DNA of 48,301 bases, taken from Escherichia phage vB_ EcoD_Phleasolo. Numbering within the stretch: the first letter of the stretch is position 1; every line of letters begins with the position of its first letter. The notes under the pieces are model-generated. The model was given only the letters and a program-made list of their open reading frames with translations. It was not told where the DNA came from and did not search any database. The stretch lies in sequence record OL539447.1, one strand, 5' to 3'. A program made the position numbers and the translations under genes. Of this stretch, positions 31,678-47,858 are shown piece after piece.

Positions 31678-33621
31678 ATGACTATGCGATTGAAATCAAT
31701 ACAAAAACAAATTGAAGAACTAGGCAAAGATAAGATTAAAGAGATTCAGGAAAAATTCACATCATCAAATGGCATGGTTCCTTACAGCTATCAGTGCGTG
31801 ATGTATGACGAGATCGCCAAGCGCATTGGTAAATATAAATACCCATTCATCGCTATGGCTTCAGTATCCGCTGGTAAGACTCTGGTTTTCGCCATGGTCG
31901 CAAAGCGTTGCTCTGAACTTGGTTTGCCGATGCTTTTACTTGCGAGACAGGCTGAGCTTGTTAGCCAGAGCGCCTCTGAAATTTCAGACTACGGCGTTCC
32001 TAACTCTGTCTATTGTTCAGGCCTTGGCATTAAGTCCTCTTATTTCCCTGTAATTGTTGGCTCTGAAGGTACAGTTGTTGGTGGCCTTGATAAGGCGCTT
32101 GGTGACTTCTGCCCCGCAGTAGTCGCAATAGATGAATGTCACATGGTAGATGACCAGGATATCGCTGAAGCAATAGACAACAATGAGACATCTCAGCAAG
32201 CGAGAGATAAAGGACGAAGCCAGTACACAATAATTATCCTTACATTGATGGAGAGATGCCGCGCTAAGTATGGTCGTGAATTGAGAATATTTGGCCTGAC
32301 TGGTTCTCCTTTCCGCGGGACCGCGCCAATTGTTGTAGAGAACCTTAAGGAACTTGGATTCTGGCGTGAAGCAGCGACTAACATTGATACCAACTATCTG
32401 GTTGAGTTTGGCTCTGTTGTTCCTACAAATTTCGGGTCTACTGATGGTGTTGGCTATGACCTATCTGAGTTTGATACCTCAGCTGATGATGGTGTTCAGG
32501 ACTTCACTAAATCCCAGCTAGAAGCAATGGAGAAGAAGATTCAGCAGTCGGGCACAATGACAGCTGAGATTATGAAGAAGGTGTGGTTGGCAGCTAAAGA
32601 ACGAAACGGTGTTCTCGTGACGTGCGCTGGTGAGCGCCATTGCAAGGAGGCTGCAAGCTATCTTCCTGAAGGTGAAACTTACTGCATAATTACTGGAAAA
32701 ACTGGTGAGAAGCAGCGTAAGGAACTACTGGATAAGTGCTTCACTGGAGAGATTAAATATTGCTTCCAGGTTCAGGCGCTTACTACTGGGGTTAACGTTC
32801 CAACATGGGATACTAGCGTAATTCTTCGCAAGATTGGCAGCCTAACTCTTCTAGTCCAACTTCTAGGTCGTGGAATGCGCAAACTGAAGAAGCTACATGA
32901 AGACAAGGGAATGGTTAAGAATGACCATTTAGTTTTAGATTTCGCTGGAACTATGGACTCGATGGCTTCACTGTACTTCAATCCCATTCTTGAGCAAGCT
33001 CAGTATCAGCTACGGAAGAGTAACGGCAAGGAGACTAAGCAGTGTCCAGTTTGCGGAACTGAGAACAGCTTCTTTGCTCGCCGCTGTATGCATGTTGACG
33101 AAAGCAATAATCGATGTGAATACTTCTGGGTTAGTCGCACATGCGAAGACCAGAAAGACCCTCGCACTGGTAAAGTTATAGTTAAAGGATGCGGGGTTCA
33201 GAATGACGTTGCAGCTAAGATTTGCAGGGGCTGTGATTGCACATTACTTGACCCGAACCTAAAGTTAAGCGGGAAACATTACAGAAAAAACGATTGGTTT
33301 GACGTTGTTGATTTTAAGGTTGGACTAACAAAGAACCAATCAGGAATCATCTATAACTATGTGCTTGATGATGGCATGGGCGGAACCTTCAAGGCTTATG
33401 AGGTTTTCTTCGTAGAGTCTGACCATAGAGTATGTAAAACTCTCTGGCTGAATAATGGAATTAAAGGTCACGTAGTTGATATGAATGCCAAGCGATATAT
33501 GGCTGCATATCGAAATGCTCGCAAGATTATGGAGTACGCGCAGTACATTCAGGCCCCGAAGCGAGTAACACACCGCAAGACCGCTAAAGGCGGAGATAAC
33601 ATGGCAAATAAGGAGTTCTGA
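31678..33621 (+). CDS. SF2 DNA helicase with C-terminal zinc-finger region
   Basis: Walker A AMASVSAGKTLV, DECH box (AIDECHMVDD), C-terminal Cys clusters. Confidence 0.8.
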   Translation: MTMRLKSIQKQIEELGKDKIKEIQEKFTSSNGMVPYSYQCVMYDEIAKRIGKYKYPFIAMASVSAGKTLVFAMVAKRCSELGLPMLLLARQAELVSQSASEISDYGVPNSVYCSGLGIKSSYFPVIVGSEGTVVGGLDKALGDFCPAVVAIDECHMVDDQDIAEAIDNNETSQQARDKGRSQYTIIILTLMERCRAKYGRELRIFGLTGSPFRGTAPIVVENLKELGFWREAATNIDTNYLVEFGSVVPTNFGSTDGVGYDLSEFDTSADDGVQDFTKSQLEAMEKKIQQSGTMTAEIMKKVWLAAKERNGVLVTCAGERHCKEAASYLPEGETYCIITGKTGEKQRKELLDKCFTGEIKYCFQVQALTTGVNVPTWDTSVILRKIGSLTLLVQLLGRGMRKLKKLHEDKGMVKNDHLVLDFAGTMDSMASLYFNPILEQAQYQLRKSNGKETKQCPVCGTENSFFARRCMHVDESNNRCEYFWVSRTCEDQKDPRTGKVIVKGCGVQNDVAAKICRGCDCTLLDPNLKLSGKHYRKNDWFDVVDFKVGLTKNQSGIIYNYVLDDGMGGTFKAYEVFFVESDHRVCKTLWLNNGIKGHVVDMNAKRYMAAYRNARKIMEYAQYIQAPKRVTHRKTAKGGDNMANKEF

Positions 33622-34010
33622 TGATTAAGGTATTTTACGATAAGACAAGCACGGACAAGGCCAAAGAGTTTGTACACCAGGTTAACTGTATCGCATGGGT
33701 TCGCCATAACCACCCTGAGATATTTGCATGGCACGTGAAGAATGAAGGCTTAAAGTCAATCGGCACTGCAGTGAAGGATAAGCAGGAGGGCGTAATCAAG
33801 GGAGTGTCGGATATATTACTGATCGGGCCAAAAGGATTTGGAGCAATAGAACTTAAGCGAGCAATAAAATCAGATAGCAAAGTTTCGAAGGAGCAAAAGG
33901 AGTTTCTTGAAAAGGTATCAGAAACAGGCGGTTACGCAGCAATCTGCTACGGATTCGAAATGTTTAAACTGGCAATTGAGGATTATCTATCAAATAGCAC
34001 GAATTGCTAA
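33621..34010 (+). CDS. VRR-NUC domain nuclease
   Basis: GVSDILLIGPKGFGAIELKR...KEQKEFLEKV matches the VRR-NUC core pattern; ends ...NSTNC via the palindromic motif. Confidence 0.55.
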   Translation: MIKVFYDKTSTDKAKEFVHQVNCIAWVRHNHPEIFAWHVKNEGLKSIGTAVKDKQEGVIKGVSDILLIGPKGFGAIELKRAIKSDSKVSKEQKEFLEKVSETGGYAAICYGFEMFKLAIEDYLSNSTNC

Positions 34011-34076
34011 AGACGAAAACCAAGGATGGTGTATTATCACTTCATCGAAACGAAACGCACAAATGAGGCAAACAAA

Positions 34077-34400
34077 ATGAAAAAGTTAATTATCGCAACT
34101 ATCCTGATGGCGGCAGCAAGTGTTAATGCAGACGCGAAAGCTAACAACTGTCATGACATCGTTCAGTACGCTTACAACCTTGCAGTTAACGAATGGGGCG
34201 CTAACAAAACTGATGTGGTTAATGCTAAAACTGTCAGTCTCTACCTGGATACATGTGAAATTGCTATCAAATCACGAGGCACTTACACTAAAGATGAACT
34301 TACAGCTAAGTATGATTCAGTAAAAACAAGCACTAAATCAGAGATGGATGTTCAGGATATTGTAATCCTTGTATCTAGAATCTCTTACGATAAGGCATAA
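34077..34400 (+). CDS. secreted/periplasmic hypothetical protein (signal peptide)
   Basis: MKKLIIATILMAAASVNA|DAK signal peptide; start moved to ATG 34077. Confidence 0.45.
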   Translation: MKKLIIATILMAAASVNADAKANNCHDIVQYAYNLAVNEWGANKTDVVNAKTVSLYLDTCEIAIKSRGTYTKDELTAKYDSVKTSTKSEMDVQDIVILVSRISYDKA

Positions 34401-34632: not shown

Positions 34633-34934
34633 TGAGTGAGGAACTTAAAGTATTCTATAAAGCCTATGCCGCTTGGCTTGACGCTGGCGCTGTTAACAAG
34701 GGTGCATTCTGGCGTGACTGTGGTTTGTGTACGTGTATCGTGTCTTGGACGAACGACGATGAAGGTTATGAGTTACTGAATGAAATGAAATCGCAGTTTA
34801 CCGCCGCTGGTCTGAGCGATCGATTCCCGTTCAACGTTAGCGACGAGGATTACGCCCGGGAGCATCTCAATAGCGCCATGCACCTTAACGAAGACCGCGT
34901 AGCCTGGGTACGCAAACATGTGGAGATCCACTAA
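34632..34934 (+). CDS. hypothetical protein
   Basis: 100-aa ORF, start coupled to the upstream stop. Confidence 0.4.
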   Translation: MSEELKVFYKAYAAWLDAGAVNKGAFWRDCGLCTCIVSWTNDDEGYELLNEMKSQFTAAGLSDRFPFNVSDEDYAREHLNSAMHLNEDRVAWVRKHVEIH

Positions 34935-34940
34935 TGAAGA

Positions 34941-35285
34941 TTGATAGAAAGCAATTCTCAAAAGCTCAAATTAACGCATGGATTGCAACGCAGTTTAATA
35001 ACTCAGAACATTGGATTAAAGCAATCGAACAGCTTAGGTGTGCTTATGATACTAAAAACCGGAAGGGCTGAGGTCTGGAAGCACTGCGGAGAGGCTGGAC
35101 TACAGGATGATATCAAGATAATAAGTAAGTACTTTGACATTGATGATATCTCTGTAGTTTATGATGGAAAATTCAGCTATATGAACCAGCGCCCTCGAAA
35201 GTATGTAAGAGTTCCGGCAACCCCAAGCCTTGCGATGTATCGCGAGGAAGGTAAGAAGATATTTAAGAAAGGTGCTAAGAAATGA
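34941..35285 (+). CDS. hypothetical protein (start uncertain)
   Basis: Track ORF opens with TTG; likely starts at the ATG at 35046 after AGGTG; an alternative 45-aa ORF (34934-35071) overlaps in another frame. Confidence 0.3.
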   Translation: MIESNSQKLKLTHGLQRSLITQNIGLKQSNSLGVLMILKTGRAEVWKHCGEAGLQDDIKIISKYFDIDDISVVYDGKFSYMNQRPRKYVRVPATPSLAMYREEGKKIFKKGAKK

Positions 35286-35539
35286 ATTTACCTGGACTTG
35301 ATTTTGATGAGAGTAAGTATCCAGTTGTCTTTTTTGGTGAGAAGCCTTACCGGAAGATCCCTTTTGCTGATTGGATTCCACCAGACTATCTTGATGTGCT
35401 GGTTCAGATTGAAGTTGGTAAGGCTGAACTCATGTATTACTCACCAGGCTGCAACATGATGATGCCTAGTGAATACTCTCCGGCAATAGCCGCGCTTGAA
35501 ACTGAGTTTCTTGATTACTGGCTAAAAGAAGTTAAATAG
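35282..35539 (+). CDS. hypothetical protein
   Basis: 85-aa ORF; its TAG stop is the first triplet of a palindromic motif copy. Confidence 0.4.
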   Translation: MNLPGLDFDESKYPVVFFGEKPYRKIPFADWIPPDYLDVLVQIEVGKAELMYYSPGCNMMMPSEYSPAIAALETEFLDYWLKEVK

Positions 35540-35690
35540 CACTTTTTGTTAAAACGCACCGCCAAGGATGGCGTATAGTGTGTTCATCGAAACGAGAGAA
35601 GCTTTAGATGAAAACATTACTACCGTTGATGGCTATGCCATTAACCTTTATAATCATGTACTTCATAATCTGCTAACAGGAAATTAAATA

Positions 35691-36824
35691 ATGGCTATTG
35701 CTAAAATTACGAACGAACAACTTAAAGAAGAACTAGCTAACGGTATGACTAACAAATCAATCGCAGAGAAGTACGGTATGAATATTCGTAACGTAGAACT
35801 GCGTCGCAGCAAGCTGGCTAAGGCTGGGGATGGTCACGGTCGCGATGTTAGTAACCTAATTCCTCAAGGCTACATGGTTAAGGGTGTATCTAGCCTCGTT
35901 GATAATGATGGAAATGTAAAGTTGCAGTGGGTTAAGTCCTCCATTGATGCAGAAAAGCTTGAAGAGATTATGAATCAAGCGCGAGAGGCATTTTCTAGTG
36001 AGTTACCAAAAGAAAAAGCAGTGAAGTCTGAAGGTCTGGATTTTGATGAAGATACTTTAGCCATGTATCCAGTGTTTGACCTTCATATTGGCGCGATGGC
36101 TCATAAGCATGAGTGTGGAGAAAACTACGACACAGCAACAGCTGAGAAAGTAATGAATGACTACTTTGATTACGCTGTTCAGAAAGCTCCAAATTCAAAG
36201 AATGCGGTACTAGTTCTTGGAGGAGATTTACTTCACTATGATTCTCTAGAGGCTAAAACTCCAGCTAGTGGTCACATCCTTGATAGTGACAGTCGCTACG
36301 CTAAAATTGTTTATGTTTGCATACGTTCGGTTCGTCGTGCAATTAGAAACATGCTTAGCAAACATGAAAATGTAGAGGTTAAAGTTATATCCGGGAATCA
36401 TGATGAAAGTGGTATGGTTTGGTTGCGAGCTGCACTTGCGGCATTTTATGAGGAAGAACCACGCGTAAGTATTGATGTTAGCCCCGCGGCAATGATGGTA
36501 ACTAAGTTTGGTTCTACAATGCTCGGGTTCACTCACGGCCATCAAATGCGGAAAGCTGATACTCGCCTTACGGTTATGGCTACTGACTGGCGACGTGACT
36601 TTGGCTTAAGTGATTATGTATACACCCACTCAGGCCACTGGCATTCACAGAAGATTACAGAAACAAATCTTGGTATTGATGAGGTTCATGGTCAGCTTGG
36701 TTCACCAGATGCATATAGTGCGAATGGTGGATGGCGCTCACAAAGGCAGGCTGCGGTAATCATATATCATAAAGAGTTTGGTGAAGTTGGTCGCTTTATC
36801 TGTCGCCCTGAAATGTTTAAATAA
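35691..36824 (+). CDS. HTH domain fused to a calcineurin-like metallophosphoesterase
   Basis: N-terminal HTH-like TNKSIAEKYGMNIRNVELRRSKL; phosphoesterase motifs in canonical order DLHIGAMAH, VLGGDLLHYD, SGNHDE, then GHQ and HSGHWH. Confidence 0.5.
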   Translation: MAIAKITNEQLKEELANGMTNKSIAEKYGMNIRNVELRRSKLAKAGDGHGRDVSNLIPQGYMVKGVSSLVDNDGNVKLQWVKSSIDAEKLEEIMNQAREAFSSELPKEKAVKSEGLDFDEDTLAMYPVFDLHIGAMAHKHECGENYDTATAEKVMNDYFDYAVQKAPNSKNAVLVLGGDLLHYDSLEAKTPASGHILDSDSRYAKIVYVCIRSVRRAIRNMLSKHENVEVKVISGNHDESGMVWLRAALAAFYEEEPRVSIDVSPAAMMVTKFGSTMLGFTHGHQMRKADTRLTVMATDWRRDFGLSDYVYTHSGHWHSQKITETNLGIDEVHGQLGSPDAYSANGGWRSQRQAAVIIYHKEFGEVGRFICRPEMFK

Positions 36825-36890
36825 TAGCACTTTTTGCTAAAGCCCTCCGGGGCTTTTGAAAGGTGTCAATTACAGACTGAGGAATCAAAA

Positions 36891-37088
36891 ATGATTACAG
36901 AGATGATTTTAGTTGCAAGCCTGTCGTCTCCATTGGCATCTCATCAGTATTGTGAGCTTGGCAAAGAGATTTATCACGATGGAGTGGAAGTAAACACAGT
37001 TGTTGAGTGGCTAAATCACAGTACGATGAACATTGATGATAAGAAGGTTGTCCTTGAGTGCTATCTGGTGGAGGCAAATAAAGTTTAA
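36891..37088 (+). CDS. hypothetical protein
   Basis: 65 aa from ATG 36891 after GAGGAATCAAAA. Confidence 0.35.
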   Translation: MITEMILVASLSSPLASHQYCELGKEIYHDGVEVNTVVEWLNHSTMNIDDKKVVLECYLVEANKV

Positions 37089-37164
37089 ATAGCACGAATT
37101 GCTAAAACACAAATTAAAAGATTGGGTATAGTTACTCCATCGAAACAAACGAGAGGATACAAAT

Positions 37165-37350
37165 ATGGCTAAGTTCACACAATCAGATGCACAAATCGAA
37201 GTTAAAGATGTTGGTTTTGGTAAGGCATTCAAGATTGCGCAGGCGTACGGGTCTAGCGAAGAAGATGTGAAAGTTGACACTATTAACCTTACTGCTAAGA
37301 ATGCACGTGAGATCGCTTATGCAATCCTTGCAGCACTTGGAGAAAAATGA
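37165..37350 (+). CDS. hypothetical protein
   Basis: 61-aa ORF with RBS GAGAGGA. Confidence 0.4.
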   Translation: MAKFTQSDAQIEVKDVGFGKAFKIAQAYGSSEEDVKVDTINLTAKNAREIAYAILAALGEK

Positions 37351-37351
37351 A

Positions 37352-37525
37352 ATGACTAAATTATTTTGCGTAATCAACAAATCAAAAACTCTGCCGTTCA
37401 CTGTAAACAATCCGTATAGCGCTGAGTATCAGGGTGAAGGAAACTACAAGATTTATGGCGATGACATGACATGGATTTTTGCGCCAATCGATGGAGCTTT
37501 GTTGGAATTCATTATCGCAGACTAA
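37352..37525 (+). CDS. hypothetical protein
   Basis: 57 aa from ATG 37352, coupled to the upstream stop. Confidence 0.35.
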   Translation: MTKLFCVINKSKTLPFTVNNPYSAEYQGEGNYKIYGDDMTWIFAPIDGALLEFIIAD

Positions 37526-47675: not shown

Positions 47676-47751
47676 GTTCTGTTAGTGTAAGTGGACAGCA
47701 CGAAGACCTCCTAAGTCTTAGGTACTGGTTCAAGTCCAGTGCGGAACGCCA
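47676..47751 (+). tRNA. tRNA-Arg (anticodon CCT)
   Basis: Hand-folded cloverleaf: acceptor GTTCTGT/GCGGAAC (two G-U pairs), D stem GTGT/GCAC with GG loop, anticodon stem AAGAC/GTCTT with loop CT-CCT-AA, T arm ACTGG-TTCAAGT-CCAGT, encoded CCA. Confidence 0.7.
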
Positions 47752-47756
47752 AATAT

Positions 47757-47858
47757 GCTCACGTTGCTAATGTTGGCCTAAGGGTGGAGCTTATACCTCC
47801 ATAAAGCAATCACCAGATAAGTGATGTAACGCAGGTTCGATTCCTGCCGTGAGCACCA
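47757..47858 (+). tRNA. tRNA-like element, non-canonical length (identity unresolved)
   Basis: Canonical T arm GCAGG-TTCGATT-CCTGC, 3' CGTGAGC-A-CCA and a perfect complementary GCTCACG 102 nt upstream; two internal 5-bp hairpins; no clean D arm. Confidence 0.3.

Follow-up and report, generated by a model that had tools for sequence, protein, structure and literature searches.

The open reading frame examined here, from Escherichia phage vB_EcoD_Phleasolo (OL539447.1), raises the question of what an enzyme with a DNA-binding type of domain at its N-terminus hydrolyzes, and what use the phage makes of it. The window, that is, the whole stretch of DNA analyzed (48,301 nucleotides), is a complete genome of a Rogue1-type, T1-like phage. 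A preliminary description made from the DNA letters had proposed a helix-turn-helix (HTH) domain fused to a calcineurin-like metallophosphoesterase, and had listed three functions as undecidable from sequence: an Mre11/SbcD-like repair nuclease, a regulatory protein phosphatase, or a signaling-nucleotide phosphodiesterase acting against host defense. Its three options are no longer equal once further tools are applied. On balance we lean towards an accessory enzyme that works without a partner, is tethered by its HTH and acts on DNA as a phosphodiesterase or nuclease; the DNA substrate, the role of the tether and the biological role are what we infer from the evidence below. The features of the locus are collected in Table 1.

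Table 1. Features of the locus, with positions in the 48,301-nt window
Feature	Position	Strand	Remarks
Sigma-70 promoter-like candidate, TTGATG-17-TATAAT	35626..35654	+	10/12; ~36 nt before ATG
Shine-Dalgarno-like AGGAA	35678..35682	+	Direct sequence reading; 8 nt 5' of ATG
HTH-metallophosphoesterase ORF	35691..36824	+	ATG to TAA, 377 aa plus stop; phrog_704 member
Three-helix HTH, LuxR/GerE / sigma-70 region 4 type, residues 1-45	35691..35825	+	
Variable linker, residues 46-57	35826..35861	+	pLDDT ~75; close orthologs 42% mean identity
Family-specific beta-hairpin (61-85) and helix (87-102), residues 58-102	35862..35996	+	AlphaFold2
Binuclear metallophosphoesterase core, residues 119-377	36045..36821	+	Nothing C-terminal of core
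Motif I, D130-L-H132-I-G134	36078..36092	+	D 150/151, H 151/151, G 148/151
Motif II, G178-D179-L-L-H182-Y-D184, GDxxH form	36222..36242	+	D179 151/151, H182 148/151
Conserved family-specific loop between motifs II and III, T190-P-A-S-G-H-I-L-D198-S-D200-S-R202	36258..36296	+	
Motif III, G235-N236-H237-D238-E	36393..36407	+	N236 and H237 149/151 each
Motif IV, F-T-H282-G-H284-Q	36528..36545	+	H282 150/151; Q not conserved
Motif V, H-S-G315-H316-W-H318	36627..36644	+	G315 146/151, H316 142/151, H318 148/151

The gene, whose product has a size of ~43 kDa, is an ordinary one, nearly identical to a gene already deposited and catalogued. The protein matches phrog_704 ('DNA repair exonuclease') end to end, residues 4-376 lying on positions 2-389 of the 390-position profile (E 7.5e-156), which makes it a member of a phage family that is very common and has been catalogued before. 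The family is represented in ~2,000 records of phages and by 4,661 clusters at 50% identity, and also occurs in prophages of many Proteobacteria. Named members include Rogue1 gp57, RTP rtp61, Bas01_0050, Campylobacter phage CP30A gp064 and Ruegeria phage DSS3-P1 gp33. Compared with the family, the Phleasolo protein has the same architecture, the same conserved residues and, within T1-like phages, the same genomic position, with no substantive difference; in some distant members the HTH is missing or the N-terminus is extended in another way. The name of phrog_704 is an annotation by remote homology, and our literature search found biochemical data for no member.

The AlphaFold2 model (pLDDT 92.9) has three N-terminal helices (residues 8-16, 21-28 and 32-44; pLDDT 86-97) and, in the core, the alpha/beta sandwich typical of the superfamily. 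Together with the five motifs described below, these helices bear out the proposed fusion. In the full 377-residue query, the Pfam matches to GerE/LuxR and sigma-70 region 4 are sub-threshold. The isolated N-terminal segment matches GerE with an E-value of 0.0027, and homologs match Sigma70_r4_2 and GerE with E-values as low as 1.5e-9 and 2.4e-8, respectively. An HTH joined to a phosphoesterase is the norm of the family: an HMM built from the N-terminal segment recovered it in 139 of the 151 representatives. Across T1-like orthologs no segment is better conserved than the HTH (80% mean identity), yet it is divergent between lineages, a pattern that fits the expectation for a target-recognition module. 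The beta-hairpin and helix that follow the linker are retained even where members have no HTH. In homologs from Vibrio, Ruegeria and Campylobacter phages, whose N-termini are of another kind or missing, the tblastn matches begin at residues 57-67. Within the hairpin region, G74 and W80 are found in 143 and 142 representatives, respectively (here and below, residue conservation was counted after the query and 150 representatives of 50%-identity clusters had been aligned with MAFFT, n = 151).

The five metallophosphoesterase motifs are present in canonical order (DxH / GD / GNH(D/E) / H / GHxH), as the preliminary description had read them, and the catalytic residues vary little or not at all among the 151 representatives. 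Since 142-151 of the 151 retain each ligand and catalytic residue, the arrangement of the motifs is not a matter of chance. Motif I aligns with sDwHlG, and motif II with GDLLH, of T. maritima Mre11. The 'GHQ' block pointed out earlier is present, but its invariant residue is H282 of T-H-G-H-Q and not the glutamine; we take H282 as the probable metal ligand of motif IV. Position 284 is histidine in 116 and aspartate in 30 of the aligned sequences. Between motifs II and III lies a loop that is mainly coil (pLDDT ~93-95), in which T190 (150/151), D198 (148/151), D200 (140/151) and R202 (144/151) are conserved, and which we regard as a putative substrate-binding element. Structure prediction and motif conservation, which had been named as checks on the assignment, thus both agree with it: a metallophosphatase fold is predicted and the motif residues are conserved in homologs. 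The Pfam model PF00149 (Metallophos) gives the query 20.6 bits, just under its gathering threshold of 21.5, and is matched by 19 of 71 family members at E<=0.01. The sub-threshold score indicates that the family is divergent, the threshold being a formal and not a structural criterion.

To which branch of the superfamily does the catalytic domain belong? Four independent tests, among them the structural, profile and NCBIfam comparisons that follow, put it nearest the nuclease branch (Mre11/SbcD, PolD DP1, PdeM), the placement that we favor, with all margins small. T. maritima Mre11 ranks first in Foldseek, and Rv0805 and other small phosphodiesterases have structural scores just slightly below. 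A single-protein sequence search of the PDB returned nothing relevant, and with a full-length profile the HTH matches hid the catalytic domain; a profile of the catalytic domain was used instead. Against 177,635 PDB sequences it matched T. maritima Mre11 (E 0.002) and the P. putida nuclease MPE (E 0.11) and no others; the Mre11 match is marginal and spans ~80 residues over motifs I-II, including GDLLH. In NCBIfam, where HTH models too gave sub-threshold matches, PdeM is the sole recurrent phosphoesterase model; 21 of 71 members match it, all below threshold (best member E 1e-4; query 15.3 bits against the 150-bit cut-off of TIGR04123), and among the matches listed there was no SbcD or Mre11 model. 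Comparison of the family profile with single sequences by hhalign, a test too insensitive to place the family, gave 1.9% for E. coli SbcD, 13.9% for Bxb1 gp47 (motifs III-V only) and 0.5% for λ NinI.

In structure and in sequence profile, the closest or nearly closest matches are Mre11/SbcD proteins (T. maritima 2q8u/3qg5/4nzv; S. aureus and E. coli SbcD). They share with the phage protein the binuclear fold, the five motifs and, in T. maritima Mre11, the GDxxH form of motif II. About 190 of 362 Mre11 residues align structurally. However, Mre11 has a capping domain and Rad50/SbcC-binding C-terminal helices, and the phage protein has neither; because its last residue, 377, is still part of the phosphoesterase core, nothing is left to form a cap. 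Conversely, Mre11 lacks the N-terminal HTH and beta-hairpin module. Neither the Rogue1 genome, which is collinear, nor that of Bas01 has an annotated Rad50/SbcC gene, and the window has no SbcC-sized ORF apart from tail genes. SbcD itself falls in phrog_100, with no match to phrog_704. The suggested resemblance to an Mre11/SbcD-like repair nuclease therefore stands, whereas membership in that group does not, because the capping domain and the Rad50/SbcC partner are lacking and SbcD is in a different PHROG.

Identity to PolD DP1 (5ihe), the 3'-5' proofreading exonuclease of archaeal family D polymerase, is only 11%, and no DP2 or any DNA polymerase gene is annotated in Rogue1-type genomes. An OB-fold domain precedes the phosphodiesterase domain of DP1; in the model of the phage protein the HTH, one long beta-hairpin and a helix precede the core. 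We liken the protein to PdeM or 'nuclease MPE' (P. putida 6nvo) of the ligase-associated, Lhr-type DNA damage response, which is a small stand-alone DNA phosphoesterase without an ATPase partner. A functional precedent among phages is provided by the metallophosphoesterases of cluster A mycobacteriophages (Bxb1 gp47, L5 gp54, A10ZJ24 Gp48), which are phage-encoded, expressed early and have phosphodiesterase activity. They are toxic to their hosts; disruption of host DNA, as with A10ZJ24 Gp48, and an action against defense are reported for them, which serves here as an analogy only. Bxb1 gp47 is of a different family: it has 255 aa and no HTH, and matches phrog_221 and phrog_20266, not phrog_704.

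The neighbors in other phages are genes of DNA and nucleotide metabolism, which we count in favor of a DNA enzyme. In Campylobacter phage CP30A the gene follows a DNA ligase gene, with RusA also nearby; in Webervirus and Sauletekiovirus it lies directly 5' of a 3'-phosphatase/5'-polynucleotide kinase (PNK) and a dNMP kinase; in DSS3-P1 the neighbors are a methyltransferase and a dNMP phosphatase; and in some other phages HNH endonucleases adjoin it. These neighborhoods are not conserved across lineages. Across 72 bacterial loci we found no obligate partner, the recurring neighbors being generic prophage genes (endolysin, terminase, portal). In prophages the gene has a late-early position, between nin-like/replication genes and lysis/packaging genes.

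Functional data come from the ortholog Bas01_0050, which is syntenic and 64% identical over its full length. Expressed in E. coli it is toxic, phages with missense or frameshift changes in it escape DRT7, and the authors of the DRT7 study predict a nucleic-acid target (bioRxiv 10.64898/2026.02.16.706125). According to the literature, the gene is dispensable in the laboratory. Toxicity of this kind could equally arise if the enzyme hydrolyzed a small molecule that the cell needs. Bas63_0035, which is reported as a second trigger of DRT7, was considered as a relative and rejected: it is a small Cro/C1-type HTH_3 protein that has the generic HTH motif alone in common with the phage protein. The escape-mutant and defense literature that we found on calcineurin-like phosphoesterases deals mostly with host defense effectors (Metis/PUA-Cal-HAD, NIR) and not with this phage gene, which is mentioned neither by Stokar-Avihail et al., who screened escape mutants on a large scale, nor in the Gabija/RecBCD preprint. 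Likewise, no link in the literature was found between the classic genetics of host-DNA degradation by T1 and this ORF.

Taken together, these observations are best accommodated by the following scheme. The gene would be transcribed together with the replication/recombination block (helicase, VRR-NUC) or shortly after it, and ahead of the lysis cassette, and its function would be accessory, not essential. The HTH would hold the enzyme on DNA, where a predicted two-metal centre, with D130, H132, D179, N236, H282, H316 and H318 as ligands and H237 as the catalytic histidine, may hydrolyze DNA phosphodiester bonds as an exo- or endonuclease that needs no ATPase partner of the Rad50/SbcC type. By orthology, the protein expressed alone would damage the host, and its activity during infection may make the phage visible to the reverse-transcriptase/primase defense DRT7. 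Its biological role would then be the processing of host DNA or of DNA ends. A bolder version, which we put forward as speculation and consider rather unlikely as a whole, is that this self-sufficient, HTH-guided, Mre11-like nuclease is a weapon for host takeover or counter-defense in T1-like phages and many others. Its targets would be host DNA or DNA ends, which it would cut or resect, in functional parallel to the action of Gam on RecBCD; the resulting damage or end state would trigger DRT7, and the lineage-specific HTH would discriminate between host and phage DNA.

Is the substrate DNA, or could it be a small molecule? The enzyme may act on a cyclic nucleotide or oligonucleotide immune messenger, as the third option of the preliminary description had it, or on NAD+, Ap4A or (d)NTPs, in an anti-defense or metabolic role in which the HTH regulates or localizes it. 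The nearly equal structural scores of Rv0805 and other small phosphodiesterases speak for such a substrate. We nevertheless find it unlikely: among solved structures and curated cellular families the sequence profiles detect DNA nucleases alone, an HTH of DNA-binding type is usual in the family, no PADLOC model matched, and the DRT7 authors expect a nucleic acid. The PNK, dNMP kinase and ligase neighbors mentioned above suggest another possibility, namely, that the enzyme heals ends by removing 3'-phosphates or 2',3'-cyclic phosphates from nicked DNA or cleaved tRNA, like the bacterial Pnkp module, and so reverses the damage of a defense nuclease together with a kinase and a ligase. That appears distinctly improbable for Phleasolo, since neither its genome nor the Rogue1-type genomes encode a PNK or ligase, the toxicity is not expected of such an enzyme, and the neighborhoods differ between lineages.

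A further question is whether the protein is an enzyme at all. It could act mainly as a regulator that binds DNA or, without catalysis, as the partner of a factor of the host or the phage, with the phosphoesterase fold as a scaffold or sensor, and DRT7 could sense the protein itself and not its activity. The strong conservation of the HTH among T1-like orthologs would agree with this, as would the small HTH protein that is the second DRT7 trigger, and Bxb1 gp47 offers a precedent for a phage metallophosphoesterase. Bxb1 gp47 is a recombination directionality factor (RDF), acting by protein-protein contact, and an RDF label is annotated near it. Retention of the metal and catalytic residues in nearly all of the divergent representatives is, however, a strong argument for catalysis; moreover, the Bas63_0035 HTH is of a different type and a pure regulator is not obviously toxic, so that we give this possibility little credence. 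A Ser/Thr protein phosphatase like λ NinI (PP-λ; phrog 246), reprogramming host phosphoproteins, is disfavored to the point of being hardly credible, for NinI shares the superfamily fold and, in lambdoid prophages, a comparable late-early place on the map, but has no detectable profile similarity to the family, and its PPP-type motif II, GDxxDRG, is missing from the phage protein.

The family is of interest beyond this genome. Members of phrog_704 are among the commonest unexplained enzymes of tailed phages, including most T1-like, Webervirus and Jersey-like phages that are candidates for therapy. The functional data on the family are genetic only: the Bas01 ortholog is toxic and dispensable in the laboratory, and decides whether DRT7 stops a T1-like phage. 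Knowledge of the substrate would tell how DRT7 senses infection, and whether a Mre11-like nuclease that needs no partner is present in T1-like phages. If it is true that the enzyme degrades host DNA, this bears on the prediction of host range in phage therapy and on the risk of transduction.

Upstream of the gene, a 21-bp near-palindrome across the -35 box of the promoter-like site was considered as an operator for the HTH and dropped, because it is present as a single copy in the genome and is missing upstream of Bas01_0050. The promoter-like site itself is a candidate only, the total of such sites in the region being no higher than in shuffled sequence; its -10-like box and the leader downstream are partially conserved 5' of Bas01_0050. 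The AGGAA before the start codon is kept in Rogue1, UDF157lw and Bas01.

The open reading frame runs from ATG to TAA at exactly 35691..36824 on the plus strand, and its 377-aa product is covered end to end by the profile of phrog_704, a phage protein family labelled 'DNA repair exonuclease' (E 7.5e-156). The fusion of an HTH to a metallophosphoesterase, read in the preliminary description from the sequence, is borne out by an AlphaFold2 model built on a 71-sequence alignment (mean pLDDT 92.9, pTM 0.77). Three N-terminal helices (residues 8-16, 21-28 and 32-44) and a linker of lower confidence are followed by a long beta-hairpin (61-85), a helix (87-102) and the phosphoesterase sandwich, which begins at residue 119 and takes up the rest of the chain. 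All five motifs named there stand in canonical order. In an alignment of the query with 150 representatives of 50%-identity clusters (151 in total), D130 is kept in 150, H132 and D179 in 151, N236 and H237 in 149 each, H282 in 150, H316 in 142 and H318 in 148. The motif matches are not due to chance, because the catalytic residues are retained in 142-151 of the 151 representatives; the 71-sequence alignment (32-84% identity) gives the same picture. The family also has signatures of its own, namely H182 in motif II (148/151) and a loop between motifs II and III (T190 in 150, L197-D198 in 148, D200 in 140 and R202 in 144).

Coordinates of motifs, signals and genes
Feature	Location	Strand	Basis or remark
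DLHIG	residues 130-134		sequence
GDLLHYD	residues 178-184		sequence
GNHDE	residues 235-239		sequence
FTHGHQ	residues 280-285		sequence
HSGHWH	residues 313-318		sequence
Ribosome-binding element AGGAA	8 nt 5' of ORF 35691..36824	+	sequence
Best promoter-like site of region, TTGATG-17-TATAAT	end 36 nt 5' of ORF 35691..36824	+	candidate
Near-palindrome GTTGATGGC-TAT-GCCATTAAC, 21 bp	35625-35645	+	overlaps -35 of promoter-like site
VRR-NUC-type nuclease ORF	33621-34010	+	phrog_824
124-aa ORF	34026-34400	+	no PHROG match
45-aa ORF	34934-35071	+	weak match to phrog_2055
tRNA-Arg(CCT)	47676-47751	+	ARAGORN
tRNA-like call, 93 nt	47766-47858	+	ARAGORN
HNH/homing endonuclease gene 3' of phrog_704	L007:39208-39693		Bas01_0051, phage Bas01
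HNH/homing endonuclease gene 3' of phrog_704	L005:6171-6671		Jersey-like Salmonella phage
HNH/homing endonuclease gene 3' of phrog_704	L002:6064-6573		Vibrio phage
Bas63_0035	L089:14325-14624		phage Bas63

HTH matches of the query itself are sub-threshold (GerE, E 0.0027 with the isolated segment; Sigma70_r4_2), and its homologs match HTH families strongly (Sigma70_r4_2 1.5e-9, GerE 2.4e-8, also HTH_23, HTH_28 and others). An HMM of the N-terminal segment recovered the HTH in 139/151 representatives, so the fusion is standard for the family and did not arise locally. Close T1-like orthologs agree in the HTH more than in any other part (mean identity 80%, versus 70% for the catalytic domain); distant members agree in it least (17% versus 37%). 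Such retention within a lineage and divergence between lineages would fit a lineage-specific recognition module.

Four independent tests agree on the nuclease branch of the superfamily as nearest, each by a small margin. T. maritima Mre11 ranks first in Foldseek, with Vps29, Rv0805 and DP1 in the same band (1e-7 to 1e-6). When a profile of the catalytic domain only was compared with all 177,635 distinct PDB sequences (E<=10), it retrieved only T. maritima Mre11 (E 0.002, over motifs I and II, with GDfLH against GDLLH) and the P. putida nuclease MPE (E 0.11). PdeM, a ligase-associated DNA-damage-response endonuclease, was the only NCBIfam phosphoesterase model matched repeatedly by the 71 members (21/71, best E 1e-4, always far under the 150-bit cut-off). 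Cyclic-nucleotide, LpxH, ApaH and PPP models were absent from the NCBIfam matches listed, and PADLOC had no match for the protein. Membership tests fail for all characterised families compared. The model has neither the capping domain nor the Rad50-binding tail of Mre11/SbcD, the genome type has no annotated SbcC/Rad50 gene, and hhalign against E. coli SbcD gave 1.9%; 'Mre11/SbcD-like' thus holds as a resemblance and not as membership. The values were 0.5% for λ NinI and 13.9%, confined to motifs III-V, for Bxb1 gp47. SbcD, NinI and gp47 belong to phrog_100, phrog_246 and phrog_221, respectively, whereas the Campylobacter, Ruegeria and Vibrio phage homologs are all phrog_704.

We lean slightly towards a DNA phosphodiesterase or nuclease that depends on divalent metal, works alone, is anchored to DNA through its HTH and has an accessory part in the replication/recombination phase. 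The HTH would keep the phosphoesterase on DNA, on which it would act without a partner, the targets being host DNA or DNA ends and intermediates. The analysis establishes the architecture, the intact active site, the affinity to the nuclease branch, the lack of partner genes and the orthology to a toxic DRT7 sensitiser of phage Bas1; both the substrate and this role are our inference. No obligate partner gene was found among the neighbourhoods compared across phage lineages, although genes of DNA and nucleotide metabolism are their common thread. Campylobacter phage CP30A has DNA ligase and RusA there, Ruegeria phage DSS3-P1 a DNA methyltransferase and a dNMP phosphatase, a Jersey-like and a Vibrio phage HNH endonucleases, and Webervirus, like Pantoea phage AAS23, polynucleotide kinase and dNMP kinase. 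The genome type studied here encodes a RecE-like exonuclease VIII, an Erf-like annealing protein, SSB, primase and two helicases; Rad50/SbcC, DNA polymerase, ligase and polynucleotide kinase are all missing from its annotated genes.

Of the three functions offered in the preliminary description, the nuclease is favoured. A phosphodiesterase acting on small molecules or immune messengers is unlikely. An end-healing phosphoesterase, with polynucleotide kinase or ligase genes nearby in some lineages, seems rather improbable in a genome type that has neither gene annotated. The HTH could also belong to a mainly non-catalytic DNA-binding or partner protein, which the intact active site makes quite improbable. 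A NinI-like protein phosphatase is very improbable.

Genetic evidence comes from Bas01_0050, the ortholog in the T1-like phage Bas1 (376 aa, 64% identity over the full length), which has the same position, flanked by the helicase block on one side and the lysis cassette on the other. [quoted passage not shown] By orthology, the gene studied here would be dispensable in the laboratory, harm the host when expressed alone and be required for DRT7 to block infection. A second preprint reported a different trigger, Bas63_0035 (10.64898/2026.04.18.719102), a Cro/C1-type HTH protein of 99 aa whose N-terminus is acidic. It has only a generic HTH motif in common with phrog_704 and no relationship to that family; nevertheless, two of the three known DRT7 sensitisers have an HTH. 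A functional precedent from an unrelated phosphoesterase family is Gp48 of mycobacteriophage A10ZJ24, with phosphodiesterase activity and reported host DNA disruption and silencing of defence genes (PMC12287305).

The gene is a member of a known, very widespread and already annotated phage family. Homologs were found by tblastn in 2,016 phage records, with hosts including Escherichia, Klebsiella, Salmonella, Vibrio, Campylobacter, Rhodobacter and Ruegeria. An exhaustive HMMER search of 1.84 billion cluster representatives gave 4,661 clusters at E<=1e-3 (982 of them at E<=1e-30), and the best matches listed were mostly 370-420 aa long. Bacterial genomes (one per species) contained 72 loci, spread over Pseudomonas, Rhizobium, Xanthomonadales, Burkholderiales and other groups; these are prophages, judging from their recurrent neighbours (endolysin at 18 loci, large terminase, portal, NinG-like and dNMP-kinase-like genes). 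In RefSeq the ortholog already carries the name 'DNA repair exonuclease', and elsewhere it is 'phosphoesterase' or 'hypothetical protein'. Given its abundance and the DRT7 link, the family, rather than this locus, is worth experimental study.

The 48,301-bp genome is that of a complete T1-like siphophage (Drexlerviridae, Rogunavirinae). In this genome type, helicase and VRR-NUC genes and several small ORFs come before the gene, and a few small ORFs and a holin-endolysin-spanin cassette after it. Promoter-like sites are no more frequent in the region than in shuffles. The near-palindrome occurs once in the genome and is kept in Rogunavirus; it was not found upstream of the Bas01 ortholog. The VRR-NUC ORF, a second nuclease in the operon, has weaker endonuclease and Holliday-junction-resolvase matches, and its start codon shares one base with the helicase stop codon. 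In the 124-aa ORF an internal Met leads into MKKLIIATILMAAASVNA, a stretch resembling a signal peptide or lipoprotein, and the ORF may be a 'moron' of the early operon with a secreted or membrane product. The match of the 45-aa ORF is to 'Kil protein for bacterial septation inhibition' (E 1e-4).

Positions 35000-37500 (2.5 kb) are 100% identical to Klebsiella phage vB_KpnD_Opt-79 and Escherichia phages vB_EcoD_Opt-719 and vB_EcoD_Sadiya (GenBank names; genomes of 48,301-48,303 bp), and ~90% identical to Rogue1, AHS24, AHP24 and related phages. The hosts recorded for the three genomes identical over this stretch are Klebsiella pneumoniae, E. coli and Serratia marcescens; either the host range is broad or the metadata are in error. 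Compared with OL539453, the gene lies 616 bp further along here, which suggests different start points for the two records. Relatives also have tRNA-Arg; directly after it here comes the odd tRNA-like call, with a two-base 'anticodon'.

An HNH/homing endonuclease gene lies directly 3' of the phrog_704 gene in three unrelated lineages (table), and one is also found inside the matched 2.5-kb region in C119, phiKP26 and AKS96; the window has none. Homing endonucleases may insert preferentially at the phrog_704 gene. Mass spectrometry of purified virions of Pantoea phage AAS23 detected its 'phosphoesterase' gp38 (PMC8004638). Its gene order is that of the Webervirus phrog_704-PNK-dNMP kinase block, and gene order and reported similarity suggest orthology. 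The signal is a hint that virions may contain the enzyme, with contamination as the alternative source.
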